Of a stretch of 26,351 bases of DNA, positions 4,023 to 19,586 are shown one piece after another. Within the stretch, counting starts at the first letter, position 1, and each line of letters begins with the position of its first letter. The DNA lies in IMG/VR virus record IMGVR_UViG_3300032218_000603, positions 1-26,351 of that record. One strand, 5' to 3'. Under the pieces are notes generated by a model. It had not been told where the DNA came from and searched no databases. It saw only the letters and a program-made list of their open reading frames with translations. A program made the position numbers and the translations under genes. The stretch comes from a virus. Taxonomy: Duplodnaviria; Caudoviricetes.

Positions 4023-4457
4023 TTATGGATGGGTAGCTTTATATGCGTCAAAATCTGCTTTAAGTTCTTTCTTGCGTCCTTTGTTCCAAACCGAAACCTT
4101 TAAAACGCGATAGGCATGTAAACCATTTTCAGACACTGTAACCCATTCAAGATTGTCTACACAATTGTTGTGTTTGCTTCCATCTTTATGGTTTACCTGT
4201 GGTTTGTTTGATTCATTGGGAATAAATGCTCTTGCGACTAGGCGGTGTACATTATGGTTGCTTTTAATGCCGTCAACACAAAAGCTAACAATCAAATATC
4301 CACTTTTGCTTTTTCCTTGTTTTAACAATTTGGAAGGAGAGCGTCGCAAACCATTGTGAAGACGGTTAAGAACCATTCTTTCAATAGACCTAACATTTCC
4401 AAAGTTGCTCACTTCGTAATGCGTTTCAAAACCTGAACATGGATGCCAAATTTCCAT
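4023..4457 (-). CDS. NUMOD4-HNH homing endonuclease, 144 aa
   Basis: NUMOD4 motif EIWHPCSGFETHYEVSNFGNVRS; HNH motif VHRLVARAFIPN...VNHKDGSKHNNCVDNLEWVT..EN..HA. Confidence 0.93.
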   Translation of the reverse strand: MEIWHPCSGFETHYEVSNFGNVRSIERMVLNRLHNGLRRSPSKLLKQGKSKSGYLIVSFCVDGIKSNHNVHRLVARAFIPNESNKPQVNHKDGSKHNNCVDNLEWVTVSENGLHAYRVLKVSVWNKGRKKELKADFDAYKATHP

Positions 4458-11536: not shown

Positions 11537-11968
11537 TTACGACTCGCCGGGCTCTACCATACGGCCAGCAGGGGTCTTAACCTTGTTGGCGGCAGAGAAC
11601 GGGCGCATCTCAGCACCTACTGCACCACCCGACTTACGGGCAGGGCGGTCAAGGCGGTGATGAGCGTGGTGACCGTGTACTTCAAGGTGCTTATGCGCCT
11701 TATGAGCCCGACCGCCGCGCTTACGCGAAGCGTGCTTTTCACCAGCTTCACGGTGCGTTGGCGAATTGCCGCCAGCGTATACGTCAGTTGGTTCTGCATC
11801 TTCGTCAACATGACCATGCATTGGCGACTCAACAGCACCGCCCTTTTTGTGAGCAGCGCGTTTCATGCTGTGCATGGAATGCTTCTTAACCATGTGATGA
11901 ACATGGTGGCCTTCGTGGTGAGCGTGATGACCGTGGTGTTCACCATGCATTTCGTGATGTTTAGCCAT
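11537..11968 (-). CDS. His-rich basic low-complexity protein with basic-x-x-GG motifs, 143 aa
   Basis: About 28 His; HKKGG, RKRGG and RKSGG motifs; GAGG SD. Confidence 0.8.
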   Translation of the reverse strand: MAKHHEMHGEHHGHHAHHEGHHVHHMVKKHSMHSMKRAAHKKGGAVESPMHGHVDEDAEPTDVYAGGNSPTHREAGEKHASRKRGGRAHKAHKHLEVHGHHAHHRLDRPARKSGGAVGAEMRPFSAANKVKTPAGRMVEPGES

Positions 11969-13138: not shown

Positions 13139-14056
13139 TTACGAGGTTGGGAATGAACCGTAGATCGAACGCCAGTTGTAGTAGCCAAGGCTGTAACGCT
13201 CATAACCCTTAACCAGCAAGTTATCAGTCGTGAAGTCTACTTGCATGTCCATTTCGAATGGAATGCGCTCCATGTACACCAGACCCTTAATGTTGGTTAG
13301 CAAGAACCAAGCATAGTTAGAGGTCAAGAAGTCCATGACCATGTAGCCTTCAGGCAGACCGCCACCGGTAAAGAGGATCGCGTTGGTATCGTTATCGGCA
13401 GTACCCGGACGAAGTTGCGTCTTCGTAAGACGAATAGCAACTGGCTCAAGCGATGGAGGAACGATCAACTTACGACCACGGGCAAAAATCTTGATGCCAG
13501 CAATATCGCGGAAGTTCTGACGAATCGAAACCATTGCGTTGAGCAAGGTAGCTTCGTTCAGATCAACCTGAACCGTTGGGGTGTTTGCAATGGTCAGACC
13601 GCCATCGATAGGATGCGAGGTCGAGCAGAGTGCCACGCCGTCAGCGCCGATAGAAGCATTGTACGTTGTTGCCGTGTTAAGCACGTTAGCAGCGTAAATT
13701 TCTTTGGTCTGATGGAACGACTCAGTGAGGCCAAGGTTGGTTGGCTTAAACTGTGCCTTGTAGAGGTTGTCGTCGATTGCCTTACGGGTGATGGCGTAGC
13801 CAAGCGCAATTTCGTTATGCTCTTGGTTGTACACGTAACGCTCACCAGCGGCGTTATCAAACTGAGTGTTACCACCTTCTTGCTTCAACTGAGCAAGACC
13901 AAGGTAACGCATTTCAGCGGTGCGTTCCAAAGCCATGTTTGACTTGGTGATTTCAAACACCTTGTCGTACTGGGATGGAATCTGCGAATATTTACCTTCA
14001 ACTCCACGGAGGCCGGGGAGGAGAAGGTCACGAATCTGACTGAGATTAATAGCCAT
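13139..14056 (-). CDS. Major capsid protein (HK97 fold, Mu gpT-like), 305 aa
   Basis: LLLPGL; K.EG....FD...E; IALGYAITRKAIDDNLY; DGVALCSTSHP; DLNEATL; RKLIVPPSL; GTADND.N; AWFLLT; DF.T.NL..K..ERYS.G...WR.IYGS; AGGAG SD. Confidence 0.92.
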   Translation of the reverse strand: MAINLSQIRDLLLPGLRGVEGKYSQIPSQYDKVFEITKSNMALERTAEMRYLGLAQLKQEGGNTQFDNAAGERYVYNQEHNEIALGYAITRKAIDDNLYKAQFKPTNLGLTESFHQTKEIYAANVLNTATTYNASIGADGVALCSTSHPIDGGLTIANTPTVQVDLNEATLLNAMVSIRQNFRDIAGIKIFARGRKLIVPPSLEPVAIRLTKTQLRPGTADNDTNAILFTGGGLPEGYMVMDFLTSNYAWFLLTNIKGLVYMERIPFEMDMQVDFTTDNLLVKGYERYSLGYYNWRSIYGSFPTS

Positions 14057-14071
14057 TTGAACTTACTCCTA

Positions 14072-14683
14072 TTACGAGCCAGCCGTGAGGCGGAAGGACT
14101 GGTTATTGAAAGCAACAATGATGCGATTGTATGCAGTTGTGGTATCCGTGCCGTTTGCGCCGGGAGGGGCGGTTACGAGCGAAAGGATACGGAACGCATA
14201 AGTCGTCGATGTGCTGATGTTTGCTTGGTTAGCATAGGCCGTGGACTGACCAGTCAGAAGCTGGTAAGCGGCTGGCGAAGCTGGGGAGTTACCGGCGTAG
14301 TCAATGTTGCTGTTGACCTGAGCCTGAGTAACCGCAGCAGAACCCGACGACTGCACGTTGAACGTGGCCTGTGGGTCTACGATAACATAAGCGTTGATGA
14401 CGGTTCCGGTTGGAACGCTGGTGCTTGCGGGCCAATATGGCGACCAAACAACACGGTTAACCGAAGAATTGTAATATTCGCAGCCGATGAAAATGCCTAG
14501 AACGGCAGTTGTACCGGCAGCGCCAGCGATGACATAGCCGCCAGAAAGCTGTACGGGGTCACCGGAGAAGATATTTGAAGAATATGCAGATTGGATTTGA
14601 TACGTCGATTGGCCCAACGAGCCAGTGCGTCCGTCCAAAAATCCAGCAAGTACGAAACCATTAGGCGCAGAAGTGTTAGCCAT
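14072..14683 (-). CDS. Putative capsid decoration/cement protein preceding the MCP (start at 14683, MANTSAPNGF)
   Basis: AAAGGAG SD before ATG 14683; IFSGDPV, LGIFIGCEY and AYVIVDP.A.F.VQ motifs; position in the head module. Confidence 0.7.
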   Translation of the reverse strand: MANTSAPNGFVLAGFLDGRTGSLGQSTYQIQSAYSSNIFSGDPVQLSGGYVIAGAAGTTAVLGIFIGCEYYNSSVNRVVWSPYWPASTSVPTGTVINAYVIVDPQATFNVQSSGSAAVTQAQVNSNIDYAGNSPASPAAYQLLTGQSTAYANQANISTSTTYAFRILSLVTAPPGANGTDTTTAYNRIIVAFNNQSFRLTAGS

Positions 14684-14770
14684 AGGTCGCTCCTTTTCGG
14701 TAGGATACAATCAGACAGCGCGTCTTCAAATATCCAACGAGGGGAAGCCCACTACGGCGCGTAATGGAGT
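14684..14770 (-). promoter_or_regulatory. Structured 5' leader with two hairpins sharing an AC-GCGCY-GU cap
   Basis: UCCAUUAC-GCGCC-GUAGUGGG and GGAUAU..AGAC-GCGCU-GUCU..GUAUCC; the second stem abuts the SD. Confidence 0.6.
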
Positions 14771-14780
14771 TATATTTTTC

Positions 14781-14809
14781 CGTATAACACTGTATTCAAT
14801 CAAGTACAA
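14781..14809 (-). promoter_or_regulatory. Candidate sigma70-like promoter for the capsid genes
   Basis: TTGTAC-17 bp-TATACG with a TGn extended -10; lies just after a terminator. Confidence 0.4.
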
Positions 14810-14810
14810 T

Positions 14811-14840
14811 AGGAAAAGGGGGCTTTCGCCCCCTTTTTTT
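14811..14840. terminator. Intrinsic terminator, potentially bidirectional
   Basis: AAAAGGGGGC-TTTC-GCCCCCTTTTTTT; GAAA tetraloop on the minus strand; T/A tracts on both sides. Confidence 0.8.
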
Positions 14841-15426
14841 ACTGTCGTGGAATTTGCATTGGCTCGTAAGACTTCTTAACACCTGTTTGACGGCGGTCAC
14901 GTTCAAATGTACCCGCTGGCGAAAGGCCAAGTGCCTTCTCTTTCTGATGCACCAATTCACGGGCCGTTGAAAGTTCGCGATCCTGAGCCATGTTGGTGAT
15001 TTCTTTTGGACGCTCCATAAGAATCATGCCTTTTTTGCGGATTGCACCGCTATGACCAATAGGCATCATGCTCTTATGGCGGCGTGTATCAACAGGTTCC
15101 CAACCAGTTGAACGCATTTCAATCATATGCTGCTCATCTGTCATGCCAGAGATTGATTCGCGCTTCCAATTGTAGTCCCAACCCTCTGGAATGATACGTG
15201 GATCAATGTAAAACTCATCATACATTGACGGGTCAAGAGAATTGCCTTCCATTTGGGTGCGAAGTTCTTCTGCACGAAGGGCAGCTTCACGTAATCCACG
15301 GTTAACTGGTGCTACACCTAACTCTGGGGATGCTTCTTCAACGGTATTGTTCATGTTTTGTTCCAATGTTTCAACAATCGGGGTTCTTACTGGCCGTCCG
15401 GGGCCACGTTTAACTAATCCTGACAT
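14839..15426 (-). CDS. Conserved head-module hypothetical protein, 195 aa, with an N-terminal AT-hook-like motif
   Basis: KRGPGRP; core IPEGWDYNWKR.S..G...GWEPV...GMILMERPKE; GAGGA SD. Confidence 0.75.
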   Translation of the reverse strand: MSGLVKRGPGRPVRTPIVETLEQNMNNTVEEASPELGVAPVNRGLREAALRAEELRTQMEGNSLDPSMYDEFYIDPRIIPEGWDYNWKRESISGMTDEQHMIEMRSTGWEPVDTRRHKSMMPIGHSGAIRKKGMILMERPKEITNMAQDRELSTARELVHQKEKALGLSPAGTFERDRRQTGVKKSYEPMQIPRQ

Positions 15427-15435
15427 AAGCTATCC

Positions 15436-16371
15436 TCACAACATGTTCTTTTGTTTGTAATATAGCTTGTTTTCAAGGTATTCCTCGTCTGACATGTCCA
15501 GATCGCGGGCTGTTTCACGTTCCGATGGGCTTAAAGTCATCGTTATCTGCTGACCAGAGCGGAAAGTTTGCGCTGAATTGGTTCGCGATACAGGTGCAGC
15601 AGCCATAGCTTGGCGTTGACGCACATGTGGAGTAGATGTTTGACCCTGATCAGCACCGTAAACCTTGTTTTCAATGTGAGCAAAGTAGTCCGGAGTGTCA
15701 GGTTGAATGCCCATTGCAACACTTTCGTGGTGTGCGGCAGTCATAAGTGACGTTTTAACCGGATCAGCAAGCACATCACGATGCGAACGTAACCAAGATT
15801 GTGATGTTGGGCTCTGAACCGCTTGAATTTGTGCTTCAATTGGGTCAAGTTGCTGTTGTTCTATCCGTGGAGCGGGTTGGCGGCGCTGTTGTTCAAGCAT
15901 TTGACGTTCATATGTCAATCTTTCTTCAACAGCTTCACGCCCTTGAGCCAATTGCATCAAGCGTGATTCAGTTTGAGCCATCTGACGCTGTATTTTGGCG
16001 GCTCTTGAGTAATCACCTTCCGCCAAAGTGTTTGCATAGTCGCGTTCAAGCATCTCTGCATCGCGTTCAAAACTGGCAATCGCATTAACAAAGGCTGTTA
16101 ATTGATTATCCTGCGCTTGAACTTGATATGTTTTGACATCTTGCTGCGCTTTATGAGCATTTTGTTCCGCCTCAATGCGTTGACGGCGGTTTTCATCAGC
16201 CTCACGCTGTTTTTCACTAAGTTGACGGCGCAAAAGATCAACGCCATCGTCTTGTTTTTGTATTGGTGCAACCGATTCCGGTGTTTTTACTGCGCCACCA
16301 AGGTCAAAATCTGCCGCTTCAGGCACATTTGGAACGGTTACAGTAACGTTTGCGGCTTCAAACTCTGCCAT
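15436..16371 (-). CDS. Capsid scaffolding protein, 311 aa
   Basis: Long Q/E/R coiled coil; acidic; C-terminal LSPSERETARDLDMSDEEY helix-turn-helix; position between portal and MCP. Confidence 0.7.
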   Translation of the reverse strand: MAEFEAANVTVTVPNVPEAADFDLGGAVKTPESVAPIQKQDDGVDLLRRQLSEKQREADENRRQRIEAEQNAHKAQQDVKTYQVQAQDNQLTAFVNAIASFERDAEMLERDYANTLAEGDYSRAAKIQRQMAQTESRLMQLAQGREAVEERLTYERQMLEQQRRQPAPRIEQQQLDPIEAQIQAVQSPTSQSWLRSHRDVLADPVKTSLMTAAHHESVAMGIQPDTPDYFAHIENKVYGADQGQTSTPHVRQRQAMAAAPVSRTNSAQTFRSGQQITMTLSPSERETARDLDMSDEEYLENKLYYKQKNML

Positions 16372-17003: not shown

Positions 17004-19586
17004 TTATTCAGTTCCGTCTGCAAAGGGCCACTTTATTTTTTCCAAACGACCACGACCAGAGCCGGAACCAAACTCTTTCTCTTGGTATTTTGGCATTACA
17101 TTCTCTACGCGACCGCCAGTTTTGCGGGGCATAGGAGGTCCACCAGCGCCGCCTTGAGCAGCCATAGCTGCCATAAGCTGCGGAGGAAGCTGAGGTGCGC
17201 CACCCGGAGCGCCACCGCCCGGAGGCATAGGAGGCATACCTTGCGGAGGCATTGGAGGCATCTGAGGAGGCATAGGAGGCATTCCCATGCCAACACCAGC
17301 GCCCATTGGCCCCTGCTGTCCGGATTGCGGAGAAATAATAATGTTTACGTTGGTTTTGCCTTTGGCGCGACCACCGGTAGCACGTTGTGGGCGACCAAAA
17401 CCAGCAGCACCAGCCATCGCGCCCATTGCGCCATTCATATTGCCCATAGGATTCATTTGGGCCGTCTGAGCGCCATTCATAGGAGCAACCGTTTGTTGCT
17501 GGCGAAATTGATCGTAAGCATTTTGGGCTGCTTGTTGTTGGTTAAACCCTTGCTGCGCAGTTTGTTGTAACTGCCCTTGATTGTAAGTATTGTAAGCATC
17601 TTGAACGGCTTGAGGAGGCATTCCTGCGCCAGAATTGCCCGCACCACCCATTTTCAATGAATCCAAAAGTTGTTGCGCAAATTGTGGGTTGTTTTGAGCA
17701 AATTGACCCATACCGCCACCAAAATAAGGAGGAGGAGGGTTGCCGCCACCCATATAAGGTGCAGGAGGATTGCCGCCGGGTTGCATCATGCTACCAAGAC
17801 CACCGCCAAACATACTGTTAACAAAAGGGTTGCCATGTTGCTGTGCATACCCTTGCGGGGTTGCATCATAACCACCCATGTGTTGACCCATAGGCCGATG
17901 CATTGGCTGCATGTTTTGACGCATGTTGTTTGCCATCATCTGTGGGTTAATCATTGGGTTAGCGCCCGTTAATGCGCCGCCGCCAAATTTCTTTGACCGT
18001 TTGGTTTCGCCGCCCCAGCACTTTTCAGCGCGGCCACCTTTTTTCATGCCTTCATCGTCCGTTGCAGGGACGTTTGCGTTACCGCTCATTTTATTGCGAG
18101 CCATATCAAGGCCACGCTGACGCTTGCTAATGGTTTTTTCTGTTTCCATAAGGTCGCGTGGATGATATGGGGCATCAAACCCGTACATTTCGGATTTAAG
18201 ATTGCTTAATTTCATCTGTTTTTTAGAATTTTGATGAGCAGACAAATTTTGTTTTGCTTTATCAGCATAGTTGCTCAAAAGACCTCCAGACGCTTTATGA
18301 GCGCGGCCACCTTTGTTCATACCAAACTTTGGATGTTTGCCCGAATACAAGTTCATAGGCGTATCCATTTTGGTACGCTCGTCTTCAGAACCAGACTCCA
18401 TTGCAGCAGCGCGTTTAGGATTCATGCCACGCTTTAATGAACCGGGACCATAACCCCGCTCAAACATGCCCCTGTGCAAAAATTCAAGAGCCTCGCCCAT
18501 TGCGTCAAGACCCTCTGGTTTTTTATAGTTAGGGTCACTTACTCTATCGTAAATAGCCTTATACTCTGCATCTCTTTTTGCTTGTATTTTTTTGCTTACT
18601 TCGTCTGAAGGGGGATCGGGATAACGTTTAAAACCAGAACTGCCACCAGACATTTTGTGAGCGCGGCCACCTTTTTTCATACCCTCATCTTCACCAGCGG
18701 GGATACGAGATAAATTTCCACTTAGTTTATTTGCGGCAGCACGAATACCCCGAAGGCGATTCGTTTCTTTTCGTTCAGCATCTGGGAAGTCTGGGATGGA
18801 CGCAAAAGACGAAGGATAATGTTTTTTAGAAAGACCATATCCTAAGCGCGTGGATTGATCAGCAAGGTTTAAAGACGCATCTTTAATATACTTACTAAGG
18901 CGGCCACCGGAAACCTTGTGCGCACGTTCCTTAAATGCATCTTCTTTAAGAACTTTATGCATTAACTTTTTATCTTGTGCTTCATCCGTATGCTTTGCAG
19001 CGCCACCTTTTTTGTGTGGAATATAAGTATCCGCAGCAAGGTTAGGCATACCTTTCATTTTAGGAATGCCCATTTTGCTGGACATGCCCGTGCCCTTGCT
19101 CTTGTAAGCCATTGCAGCAGCTTGCTTGCGGCCAATAACGCCGCCGCGAGCCAATGGCTCTTTAGGCTCGTAGCCGTAAGCCTCCTTAGGCGTAATTCCT
19201 TGACCCGTTTCAGTATTGGTCATAGTTCCCATGCCGCTAGGTTTAGCTGCTGGAGGTTTTGGAGGAGCCGGATTTTTATTTAAATTCTTTGGGCGAGGAA
19301 TAGGAAATGGCACAGCGCCGCCATCATCGCGCTTGCGGCGAGCAGATTTACCAAGGTTTTTGCGAGCCATCTCTCCTTCGGCATGAACGTGTTTGCCAAC
19401 CTTGCCACCACGTTTAAACTTAGATGGGGTAATAGGCATTTTGCCAGCATTGCCGCTATTCAACCCTTCAAACGGGGAACCACCGCGCTCATCCGTGAAG
19501 GATTTGCTGCCATCTGCCAACTTCAAGCCCATGCGCTGCATTTTAGCTGCGGATGCCGACTTTGCTTCTTTCTTATATTCGCTCAT
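17004..19586 (-). CDS. 860-aa low-complexity K/G/M/P-rich protein with about 15 basic-x-x-GG motifs; putative internal capsid (cargo) protein
   Basis: AGGAG SD; directly after the portal; repeated GMKKGGRAHKxSGG linkers; M/G/P/Q-rich C-terminal third. Confidence 0.8.
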   Translation of the reverse strand: MSEYKKEAKSASAAKMQRMGLKLADGSKSFTDERGGSPFEGLNSGNAGKMPITPSKFKRGGKVGKHVHAEGEMARKNLGKSARRKRDDGGAVPFPIPRPKNLNKNPAPPKPPAAKPSGMGTMTNTETGQGITPKEAYGYEPKEPLARGGVIGRKQAAAMAYKSKGTGMSSKMGIPKMKGMPNLAADTYIPHKKGGAAKHTDEAQDKKLMHKVLKEDAFKERAHKVSGGRLSKYIKDASLNLADQSTRLGYGLSKKHYPSSFASIPDFPDAERKETNRLRGIRAAANKLSGNLSRIPAGEDEGMKKGGRAHKMSGGSSGFKRYPDPPSDEVSKKIQAKRDAEYKAIYDRVSDPNYKKPEGLDAMGEALEFLHRGMFERGYGPGSLKRGMNPKRAAAMESGSEDERTKMDTPMNLYSGKHPKFGMNKGGRAHKASGGLLSNYADKAKQNLSAHQNSKKQMKLSNLKSEMYGFDAPYHPRDLMETEKTISKRQRGLDMARNKMSGNANVPATDDEGMKKGGRAEKCWGGETKRSKKFGGGALTGANPMINPQMMANNMRQNMQPMHRPMGQHMGGYDATPQGYAQQHGNPFVNSMFGGGLGSMMQPGGNPPAPYMGGGNPPPPYFGGGMGQFAQNNPQFAQQLLDSLKMGGAGNSGAGMPPQAVQDAYNTYNQGQLQQTAQQGFNQQQAAQNAYDQFRQQQTVAPMNGAQTAQMNPMGNMNGAMGAMAGAAGFGRPQRATGGRAKGKTNVNIIISPQSGQQGPMGAGVGMGMPPMPPQMPPMPPQGMPPMPPGGGAPGGAPQLPPQLMAAMAAQGGAGGPPMPRKTGGRVENVMPKYQEKEFGSGSGRGRLEKIKWPFADGTE
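18027..18683. repeat. Three 24-bp direct repeats AGCGCGGCCACCTTT(T/G)TTCAT(G/A)CC at 18027-18050, 18300-18323 and 18660-18683
   Basis: Read directly from the sequence; they encode GM(K/N)KGGRA. Confidence 0.9.

Follow-up and report, generated by a model that had tools for sequence, protein, structure and literature searches.

Two hairpins with matching five-nucleotide loops form a leader RNA that is retained ahead of the decoration and capsid genes in hundreds of related phage contigs. This twin-loop leader is real, conserved and absent from the Rfam catalogue: its structure is maintained, it is tied to the decoration gene, its two loops change in concert and the first codons of the gene that it precedes are constrained. 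We propose that it acts as a translational ON switch of the decoration-capsid mRNA, opened by a two-site protein reader, a tentative reading to which we give a probability of roughly 0.45. The element was found in "the window", by which we mean the whole 26,351-nt stretch analyzed (positions 1 to 26,351 of the IMG/VR virus record IMGVR_UViG_3300032218_000603, Caudoviricetes).

Phage, host and gene neighborhood

On its minus strand the window carries tailed-phage head and tail genes in the order terminase, portal, 860-aa protein, GroES-like protein, 311-aa scaffold-like protein, the 195-aa protein p195 and, after a spacer of 155 nt, a 203-aa protein followed by the major capsid protein; many kilobases of virion genes lie downstream of the leader on the same strand. 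The major capsid protein (13139..14056, minus strand) matches the phrog_371 major head protein (E 2.9e-14) and PF10124 (E 2.6e-6). The 203-aa protein (14072..14683, minus strand), encoded by the first gene after the leader, is predicted from its structure model (pLDDT 83) to be a capsid decoration (cement) protein. The best structural match is the HFTV1 head decoration chain (Z 8.1, rmsd 3.4, 121 aligned), the next are the FCWL1, Sf11 and TW1 head decoration chains (Z 7.2-7.5), and nearly all of the best 18 matches are phage head chains; Foldseek gave a best E of 1.9e-3.

Two candidate readers are encoded just upstream. The 311-aa protein (15436..16371, minus strand) had no PHROG or Pfam family match above cut-off and is probably the scaffold, judging by its position after the portal and GroES-like genes and by a conserved C-terminal helical motif. 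The other, p195 (14839..15426, minus strand), is the last gene of the upstream unit and has a homologue in 435 of 497 records, but no PHROG or Pfam family matched it. Its predicted fold is a small beta-alpha-beta core with a long helix (best PDB match Z 4.1). The protein is kept in nearly all relatives, cultured pelagiphage-type phages included; its core is confident in the model, without a solved-structure match, and an N-terminal RGPGRP-like (AT-hook-like) motif is frequent.

The gene order is common to HTVC023P, Pag-Yong1, Caulobacter phage RW and DSL-LC04, with 29-35% identity in the decoration protein. The host is probably an alphaproteobacterium, because closer relatives sit in Rhizobium, Bosea and other alphaproteobacterial assemblies and because two complete genomes of the window clade carry GcrA homologues (L778:16029-16505 and L775:8767-9246). 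A GcrA-related family occurs in six of ten element-bearing genomes. Elsewhere in the window, a histidine-rich basic 143-aa protein is encoded among the head genes (11537-11968; a similar family is found in 8/10 element-bearing genomes), the 860-aa protein between the portal and GroES-like genes (17004-19586) is of low complexity with repeated GG-containing motifs, and an ORF that looks HNH-endonuclease-like by its sequence is inserted among the tail-fiber genes (4023-4457). One related 90.6-kb record with inverted terminal repeats (G007; loci L512/L528) carries the capsid module twice in opposite orientation, possibly as an assembly artefact.

Structure of the leader

Directly after the p195 stop codon the sequence contains a terminator-like GC hairpin with a GAAA loop and a T run (14814..14837, minus strand). 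Similar hairpins are found in most window-clade relatives, though the hairpin in the window was not among the matches of a strict terminator scan. The twin-hairpin leader that follows, on the same strand, is supported by sequence, folding and covariation. Hairpin 1 (14748..14768) has 8 pairs and the pentaloop GCGCC (14760-14756). A pyrimidine linker of 7 nt (14741..14747) joins it to hairpin 2 (14697..14740), whose long irregular stem consists of an apical helix of 4 pairs, a 4x4 internal loop, a 6-pair lower stem and 3 further pairs, and whose pentaloop is GCGCU (14721-14717). Within the linker, CUUC (14747-14744) pairs with GGAG (14693-14690) of the Shine-Dalgarno sequence (SD) AGGAG (14690..14694), in which GGAG is at least 90% conserved. 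The 91-nt leader folds exactly into this structure (-29.0 kcal/mol, z -2.7); the two hairpins proposed in the first-pass annotation lie where it had placed them. The opposite strand reaches -24.7 kcal/mol (z -1.2), and the energy of hairpin 1 is -9.6 on the mRNA strand versus -5.8 on the opposite strand.

The element is longer than first described, however. The decoration gene (203 aa) starts at the AUG at 14683, and the structure continues into its first ten codons, where a start-codon hairpin (14656..14688, minus strand) pairs GGCG with CGCC; three of the four pairs are present in the window, and synonymous-codon constraint marks this hairpin in relatives. An alternative fold, in which the AUG region pairs with the loop and 3' arm of hairpin 1, is 98% paired among relatives, without covariation.

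Taken alone, the loop 9-mer that occurs twice in the window is within chance (12 of 100 shuffles); the hairpin pair is accepted as real because of its conservation, not because of the repeat. A covariance-model search of the window for further copies returned this one site, the next best match having an E of 0.82. The idea of a regulon was dropped after exact loop patterns were searched in 9 genomes: none of the 12 additional matches examined is a free intergenic hairpin, and nearly all lie inside long open frames, on either strand.

Occurrence and link to the decoration gene

Protein homology gathered 496 loci, and the start was located in 470 of the 497 records (window included), yielding 281 distinct leaders. 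A finder based on a central G, a Watson-Crick closing pair, stem strength and spacing detected twin pentaloop hairpins in 211 of these 281 decoration-gene leaders versus 2.3% of shuffles, a count that is not blind since the limits of the finder were chosen after the leaders had been viewed. The twin loops are about 39 nt apart, and the spacing is 37-43 nt in 186 of the 211. Of the 70 misses, 27 have spacers shorter than 45 nt, which leave no room for the element; these belong to the group of cultured relatives (spacers 14-53 nt). Many of the other misses show twin loops by eye and are not included in the 211.

Scans of IMG/VR with gene-free patterns were independent of the choice of gene. The window-type pattern gave 119 matches, of which 58 form both hairpins; 57 of the 58 precede a decoration gene and the remaining one is on a cut contig that shows the same start. 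For type A, the commonest loop type (CCGGY), 89 of 120 sampled matches form both hairpins, and all but one of these (88/89) precede a decoration gene, the exception being a simple repeat. The 120 were sampled from about 920 stored IMG/VR stretches that match the type-A pattern. GenBank record MW202675 has type A even though small genes part p195 from the decoration gene, and the element therefore travels with the downstream gene. It is also present in proviruses of cultured Rhizobium-type hosts (L081 and L083; G010 and G011), which offer a laboratory handle.

Two other structures were seen near type-A leaders. Roughly 100-115 nt ahead of the AUG, many of these leaders (e.g. L100, L102 and L104) have an extra short, variable hairpin, placed between the promoter-like motif and hairpin 1, that the window clade lacks. 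On one phage contig a small RNA resembling MmgR (suhB, RF00519) lies directly upstream of a type-A leader (L698:377-459), with 39.7 bits versus a gathering score of 41 (E 3.7e-5); its core motif was absent from the other loci checked.

Conservation and covariation

An alignment of 29 distinct window-clade leaders, from relatives with 68-99% protein identity, contains compensatory changes in both hairpins. In hairpin 1 all 232 of 232 cells are paired, 59 of them as G-U, and one column is compensatory. Pairing is also complete (100%) in the apical stem of hairpin 2, where 3 columns are compensatory; the lower stem of this hairpin has 5 such columns at 73% pairing, partly owing to alignment slip. 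The anti-SD helix is paired in 99% of cells, with one-sided changes only, in agreement with the CUUC-GGAG pairing suggested at the outset. The covariation score of the clade, 0.262, was reached by 0 of 500 shuffles, and slid controls gave at most 0.099. Type A, which has a bulge on the 3' side, showed compensatory changes at 12 of 14 pairs (61 leaders). Compensatory change is present in two clades, and the earlier claim of G-U pairs that work on the mRNA strand only is upheld by the 59 G-U cells and by the better fold of that strand.

Codon use at the start of the decoration gene agrees with the start-codon hairpin. The second codon, for alanine, is GCG in 162 of 199 element-bearing genes versus a 19% background, and in 0/18 element-less genes; the alanine codon before proline is GCG in 138 of 169 versus the same 19%, and in 1/13 element-less genes. 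These figures indicate that the hairpin spanning codons 1-10 is under synonymous constraint solely in phages that bear the element.

Promoter and transcripts

A sigma-70-like promoter (14781..14809, minus strand) lies between the terminator-like hairpin and the leader. Its -35 box TTGTAC (14809-14804) and -10 box TATACG (14786-14781) are separated by 17 nt, and the predicted +1 is near 14774; a consensus promoter scan missed it. Of 37 window-clade leaders, 27 have a TTG-N20-TA motif whose end lies 11-12 nt ahead of hairpin 1, and in 26 of these the last -10 position is not T. A missing final T of the -10 box is a trait of alphaproteobacterial promoters. One group of leaders (L048-L058) lacks the terminator-like hairpin, and its promoter region, some 95-130 nt ahead of the AUG, is an inverted repeat that runs from -35 to -10.

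Lake RNA runs gave contigs over the decoration and capsid genes from a relative with about 89% similarity, and in three of the four runs these contigs stop at 14769, 14752 and 14748, the last with 25 unaligned letters. For a second phage (L027), two RNA contigs start 86 and 78 nt before the AUG with no loose ends, a third RNA run starts inside the decoration gene, and contigs of a probably-DNA run continue upstream. RNA contigs are deep over the decoration and capsid genes; no conclusion on expression level is drawn from the low RNA cover over p195. Because this evidence consists of assembled contigs, it offers a weak hint that both hairpins are part of the decoration-capsid mRNA. The first-pass annotation had made its proposal depend on a start upstream of the hairpins. 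The predicted +1 does lie just upstream of hairpin 1, and the RNA contigs stop around the 5' edge of that hairpin, itself a weak hint.

Loop sequences

The loops follow the consensus C-[N C G N Y]-G. The closing pair is C-G in 199 and 191 of the 211 leaders for the two hairpins, whereas the next pair varies, and a C2-G3 core is present in 196 and 183 of the 211 loops. After type A, the main types are GCGCY in the window and RGGCC in the Rhizobium proviruses. The shared cap noted at first sight is lineage-specific rather than fixed.

The three commonest types contain the palindromic 4-mers CCGG, GCGC and GGCC and therefore cannot separate kissing between the loops from recognition by a shared reader; the rarer types can. 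Concerted non-palindromic pairs include ACGAU/ACGAU (7 leaders) and CCGUU/CCGUU (9 leaders, with two origins on the scaffold and p195 trees), and CCGAU/CCGAA, ACGGU/ACGGC and GAGCC/GAGCC are further concerted pairs; all five permit just 2 loop-loop pairs. Loops that differ yet are complementary occur in no lineage. Among 51 distinct loop pairs, identity within a pair averages 3.51 of 5 positions versus 2.55 ± 0.13 when permuted, and the longest loop-loop pairing run averages 3.18 versus 2.93 ± 0.07. The excess is about 7 s.d. for identity and 3.5 s.d. for complementarity, both inflated by related lineages. Discordant loops exist (e.g. CCGGU/GCGCU in 2 leaders), and 12 of 211 leaders share at most one of four positions. 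Since the loops change together, non-palindromes included, a trans-acting reader is favored over kissing, and loop positions 1 and 4 may be a lineage code matched to this putative reader.

Predicted access to the ribosome-binding site

Energy predictions give the decoration gene a far less accessible ribosome site than the capsid gene. Opening positions -14..+9 takes a median of 13.5 kcal/mol versus 6.3 for the capsid gene of the same phage, with 34 of 34 window-clade leaders in this direction. The type-A values are 14.4 versus 8.4 kcal/mol (harder in 98/101), and in the mixed remainder the decoration site is the harder one in 16/25.

The two clades are predicted to respond differently when the loops are bound. 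In type A, hairpin 2 is mostly unformed in the free leader (median P 0.12), and its 3' arm pairs over the AUG (86% of cells paired in 61 leaders, changes mostly one-sided). With a loop-binding bonus the site opens in 73 of 106 leaders and closes in 7, with a median gain of 1.6 kcal/mol, although the site stays fairly closed. The twin-hairpin fold of type A thus competes with the AUG-covering helix, which suggests activation. In the window clade a plain bonus opens 3/35 and closes 8/35, because the twin-hairpin fold already includes the SD helix; it follows that binding without bridging would repress. Holding the linker single-stranded in this clade lowers the cost from 7.0 to 1.9 kcal/mol at a price of 5.6, the opening being built in by the constraint, and no other fold recaptures the SD.

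Proposed mechanism and alternatives

In the ON-switch reading, a late promoter just behind the terminator would start the message about 6 nt before hairpin 1, and the ribosome-binding site of the free leader is predicted to be kept paired, with competing folds. From the loops we infer a reader, probably a phage-encoded protein, that would bind both identical loops and open the site. In the window clade the 7-nt linker would be the anti-SD; while it is paired, hairpin 1 would stack on the base of the hairpin-2 rod with the loops pointing apart, and a reader that kept the two loops together would draw the linker away from the SD, a geometry like that of the guanidine-II model. For the large CCGGY clade the proposal is that hairpin 2 can instead give its 3' arm to a helix over the AUG, so that stabilizing this hairpin would free the start codon. 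The likeliest candidates for the reader would be the scaffold-like protein or p195, made just upstream, and either would tie capsid synthesis to scaffold supply. A bolder form of the proposal is an assembly checkpoint, in which the scaffold (or p195) would read a lineage-specific two-letter loop code and switch on decoration and capsid translation only when present, so that capsid output would follow scaffold supply and co-infecting relatives could not cross-activate; we regard this form as speculative and quite unlikely to hold in full.

The opposite direction of control, put forward in the first-pass annotation, is a two-site operator for feedback repression in which free decoration, capsid or scaffold protein would bind the loops and lock the SD-paired rod. 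The coexistence of hairpins and SD helix in one window-clade fold is consistent with it, as are the 32 of 35 leaders of that clade in which the site stays closed, or becomes more so, under a binding bonus, and the scaffold of P22 is reported to autoregulate translation (10.1101/2022.12.13.520362). However, the genes concerned encode the most abundant virion proteins, for which a site predicted to be closed already without ligand would be unusual; the decoration and capsid trees fit loop type worst; and in type A, the largest clade, binding favors the open fold. The fold competition there points to activation, and we keep repression as an unlikely rival. An RNA-only switch, in which kissing of the loops, perhaps aided by a small ligand as in guanidine-II, would free the SD, agrees with the self-complementary common loops, with wobble variants (UCGG, GUGC) that keep the pairing, with the modest excess of loop-loop pairing, with the C2-G3 core and with an anti-SD in the 7-nt linker like that of the guanidine-II model (PMC5558903). 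Identity nonetheless explains the loops better than complementarity, C2 is replaced in GGGCC, GAGCC and GUGCU loops, lineages whose identical loops can form only 2 pairs are well conserved, complementary but different loops do not occur, and the genes downstream encode virion proteins. The GCGC kissing suggested earlier is accordingly disfavored, and we consider an RNA-only switch improbable.

The remaining alternatives place the function outside translation. Twin hairpins at the 5' end might act on RNA polymerase, like HK022 put, to carry it through the late operon, or might protect the message against degradation; about 6 nt separate the predicted start from hairpin 1, kilobases of same-strand virion genes follow, and the RNA contigs over the decoration and capsid genes are deep. 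Such a role would leave the conserved anti-SD, the AUG-covering helix and the synonymous-codon constraint unexplained, the surface of a host polymerase should not need a lineage-specific loop code, and put hairpins are adjacent and unlike each other, all of which makes it very improbable. Two inverted repeats about four helical turns apart could also be a pair of DNA operators bound by a transcription factor, and the narrow loop spacing would suit this. But the stems vary freely yet keep pairing, and many G-U pairs work on the mRNA strand only; the covariation appears largely to refute a DNA-level operator, to which we attach hardly any credence.

Candidate readers

The search for the reader found none, and the only pointer to its identity within our data is a tree fit that is slightly better for the scaffold. 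Among 131 loci (minimum 7), loop type changes 9 times on the tree of the scaffold C-terminal region, versus 12 on the p195 tree, 12 on the decoration tree and 13 on the capsid tree, the difference between 9 and 12 being small. This fit, together with the reported control of translation by P22 scaffold, may point to the scaffold. Against p195 or scaffold as the reader of an ON switch, both genes also occur in element-less relatives, and no residue columns in four neighboring proteins track the CCGUU loop change.

For p195, the best Foldseek match (a U1-70K chain, E 0.14) is not significant, and a search of the ESM Atlas returned unnamed viral clusters only. Its W-x-Y, GWEPV and MERP motifs presumably resemble DUF4177; a relationship to that family was set aside, without Pfam support. 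When gene content was compared between 10 element-bearing genomes and 5 without the element, no RNA-binding candidate stood out. One family is in 10/10 of the former and 0/5 of the latter; it looks acetyltransferase-like, lies among virion genes and had no Pfam match. Divergence confounds this comparison, as p195 itself was detected in only 2/5 element-less genomes.

Comparison with known RNA elements

At the gathering threshold, Rfam 15 gave 0 matches in the whole window, 0 in 20 diverse loci and none on the element in 20 type-A loci; at E up to 10 the leader region gave terminator-driven weak matches only. The leader thus stands as proposed, an undescribed, cis-acting, two-site element of the mRNA strand on the decoration/capsid message. 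HK022 put comprises two hairpins right behind a phage promoter, adjacent and differing from each other, whose RNA brings about protein-free antitermination by binding RNA polymerase; our leader likewise has two hairpins near a promoter, but it is coupled to the ribosome-binding site. Leaders bound by CsrA/RsmA carry GGA in hairpin loops, whereas here GGA loops occur in a few single hairpins only and never as the shared type.

A literature search found no description of a twin-loop leader, its comparison leaving aside the unnamed candidate alignments of PMC10690425. That study (Fremin et al. 2023), drawing on the same source collection, IMG/VR, describes 8,495 unnamed structured-RNA candidates, five of them upstream of a major capsid domain with no function given there, and our leader may be among them. 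The P22 scaffold, which is described as autoregulating translation by acting on its own message (10.1101/2022.12.13.520362), is a likeness in that a head-assembly protein would set head-gene translation; here, however, the leader lies downstream of the scaffold-like gene, before the decoration and capsid genes.

The leader would work most like two families of paired hairpins while departing from the loop features that define them. ANTAR targets, described as dual hexaloops with A1 and G4 (PMC8934654), also have two similar loops read by a protein (putative here), a hairpin 2 that competes with an inhibitory helix and constrained spacing. Our leader instead has central-G pentaloops on longer stems, and no ANTAR domain was matched in p195 homologues or in 12 other proteins scanned. 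Guanidine-II (mini-ykkC) is described as two hairpins with ACGR tetraloops on two G-C pairs and a linker of 7-40 nt with an anti-SD (PMC5558903). Shared with it are two hairpins, identical small loops with C-G at positions 2-3, an anti-SD linker of at least 7 nt and a likely translational control. In the window clade the linker is 7 nt long and its CUUC-GGAG pairing is present in 99% of cells, while type A has chiefly the 3' arm of hairpin 2 as its competing strand. In contrast to guanidine-II, the leader has pentaloops N-C-G-N-Y closed by C-G (the nearest to ACGR being ACGAU, 7/211), the pair below the closing pair is variable, the loop code varies with lineage and hairpin 2 is a long irregular rod; guanidine-II precedes guanidine carboxylase or SugE-like genes, and our leader precedes decoration and capsid genes.

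How scaffold, capsid and decoration proteins are balanced is known in few tailed-phage systems, and an RNA switch that activates capsid translation would be uncommon. The element is compact and widespread, its natural loop variants make the reader testable by swapping, and it could supply orthogonal RNA-protein switch pairs. If the checkpoint exists, it would parallel the guanidine-II riboswitch but be gated by a protein, and its natural variants would be orthogonal to one another.
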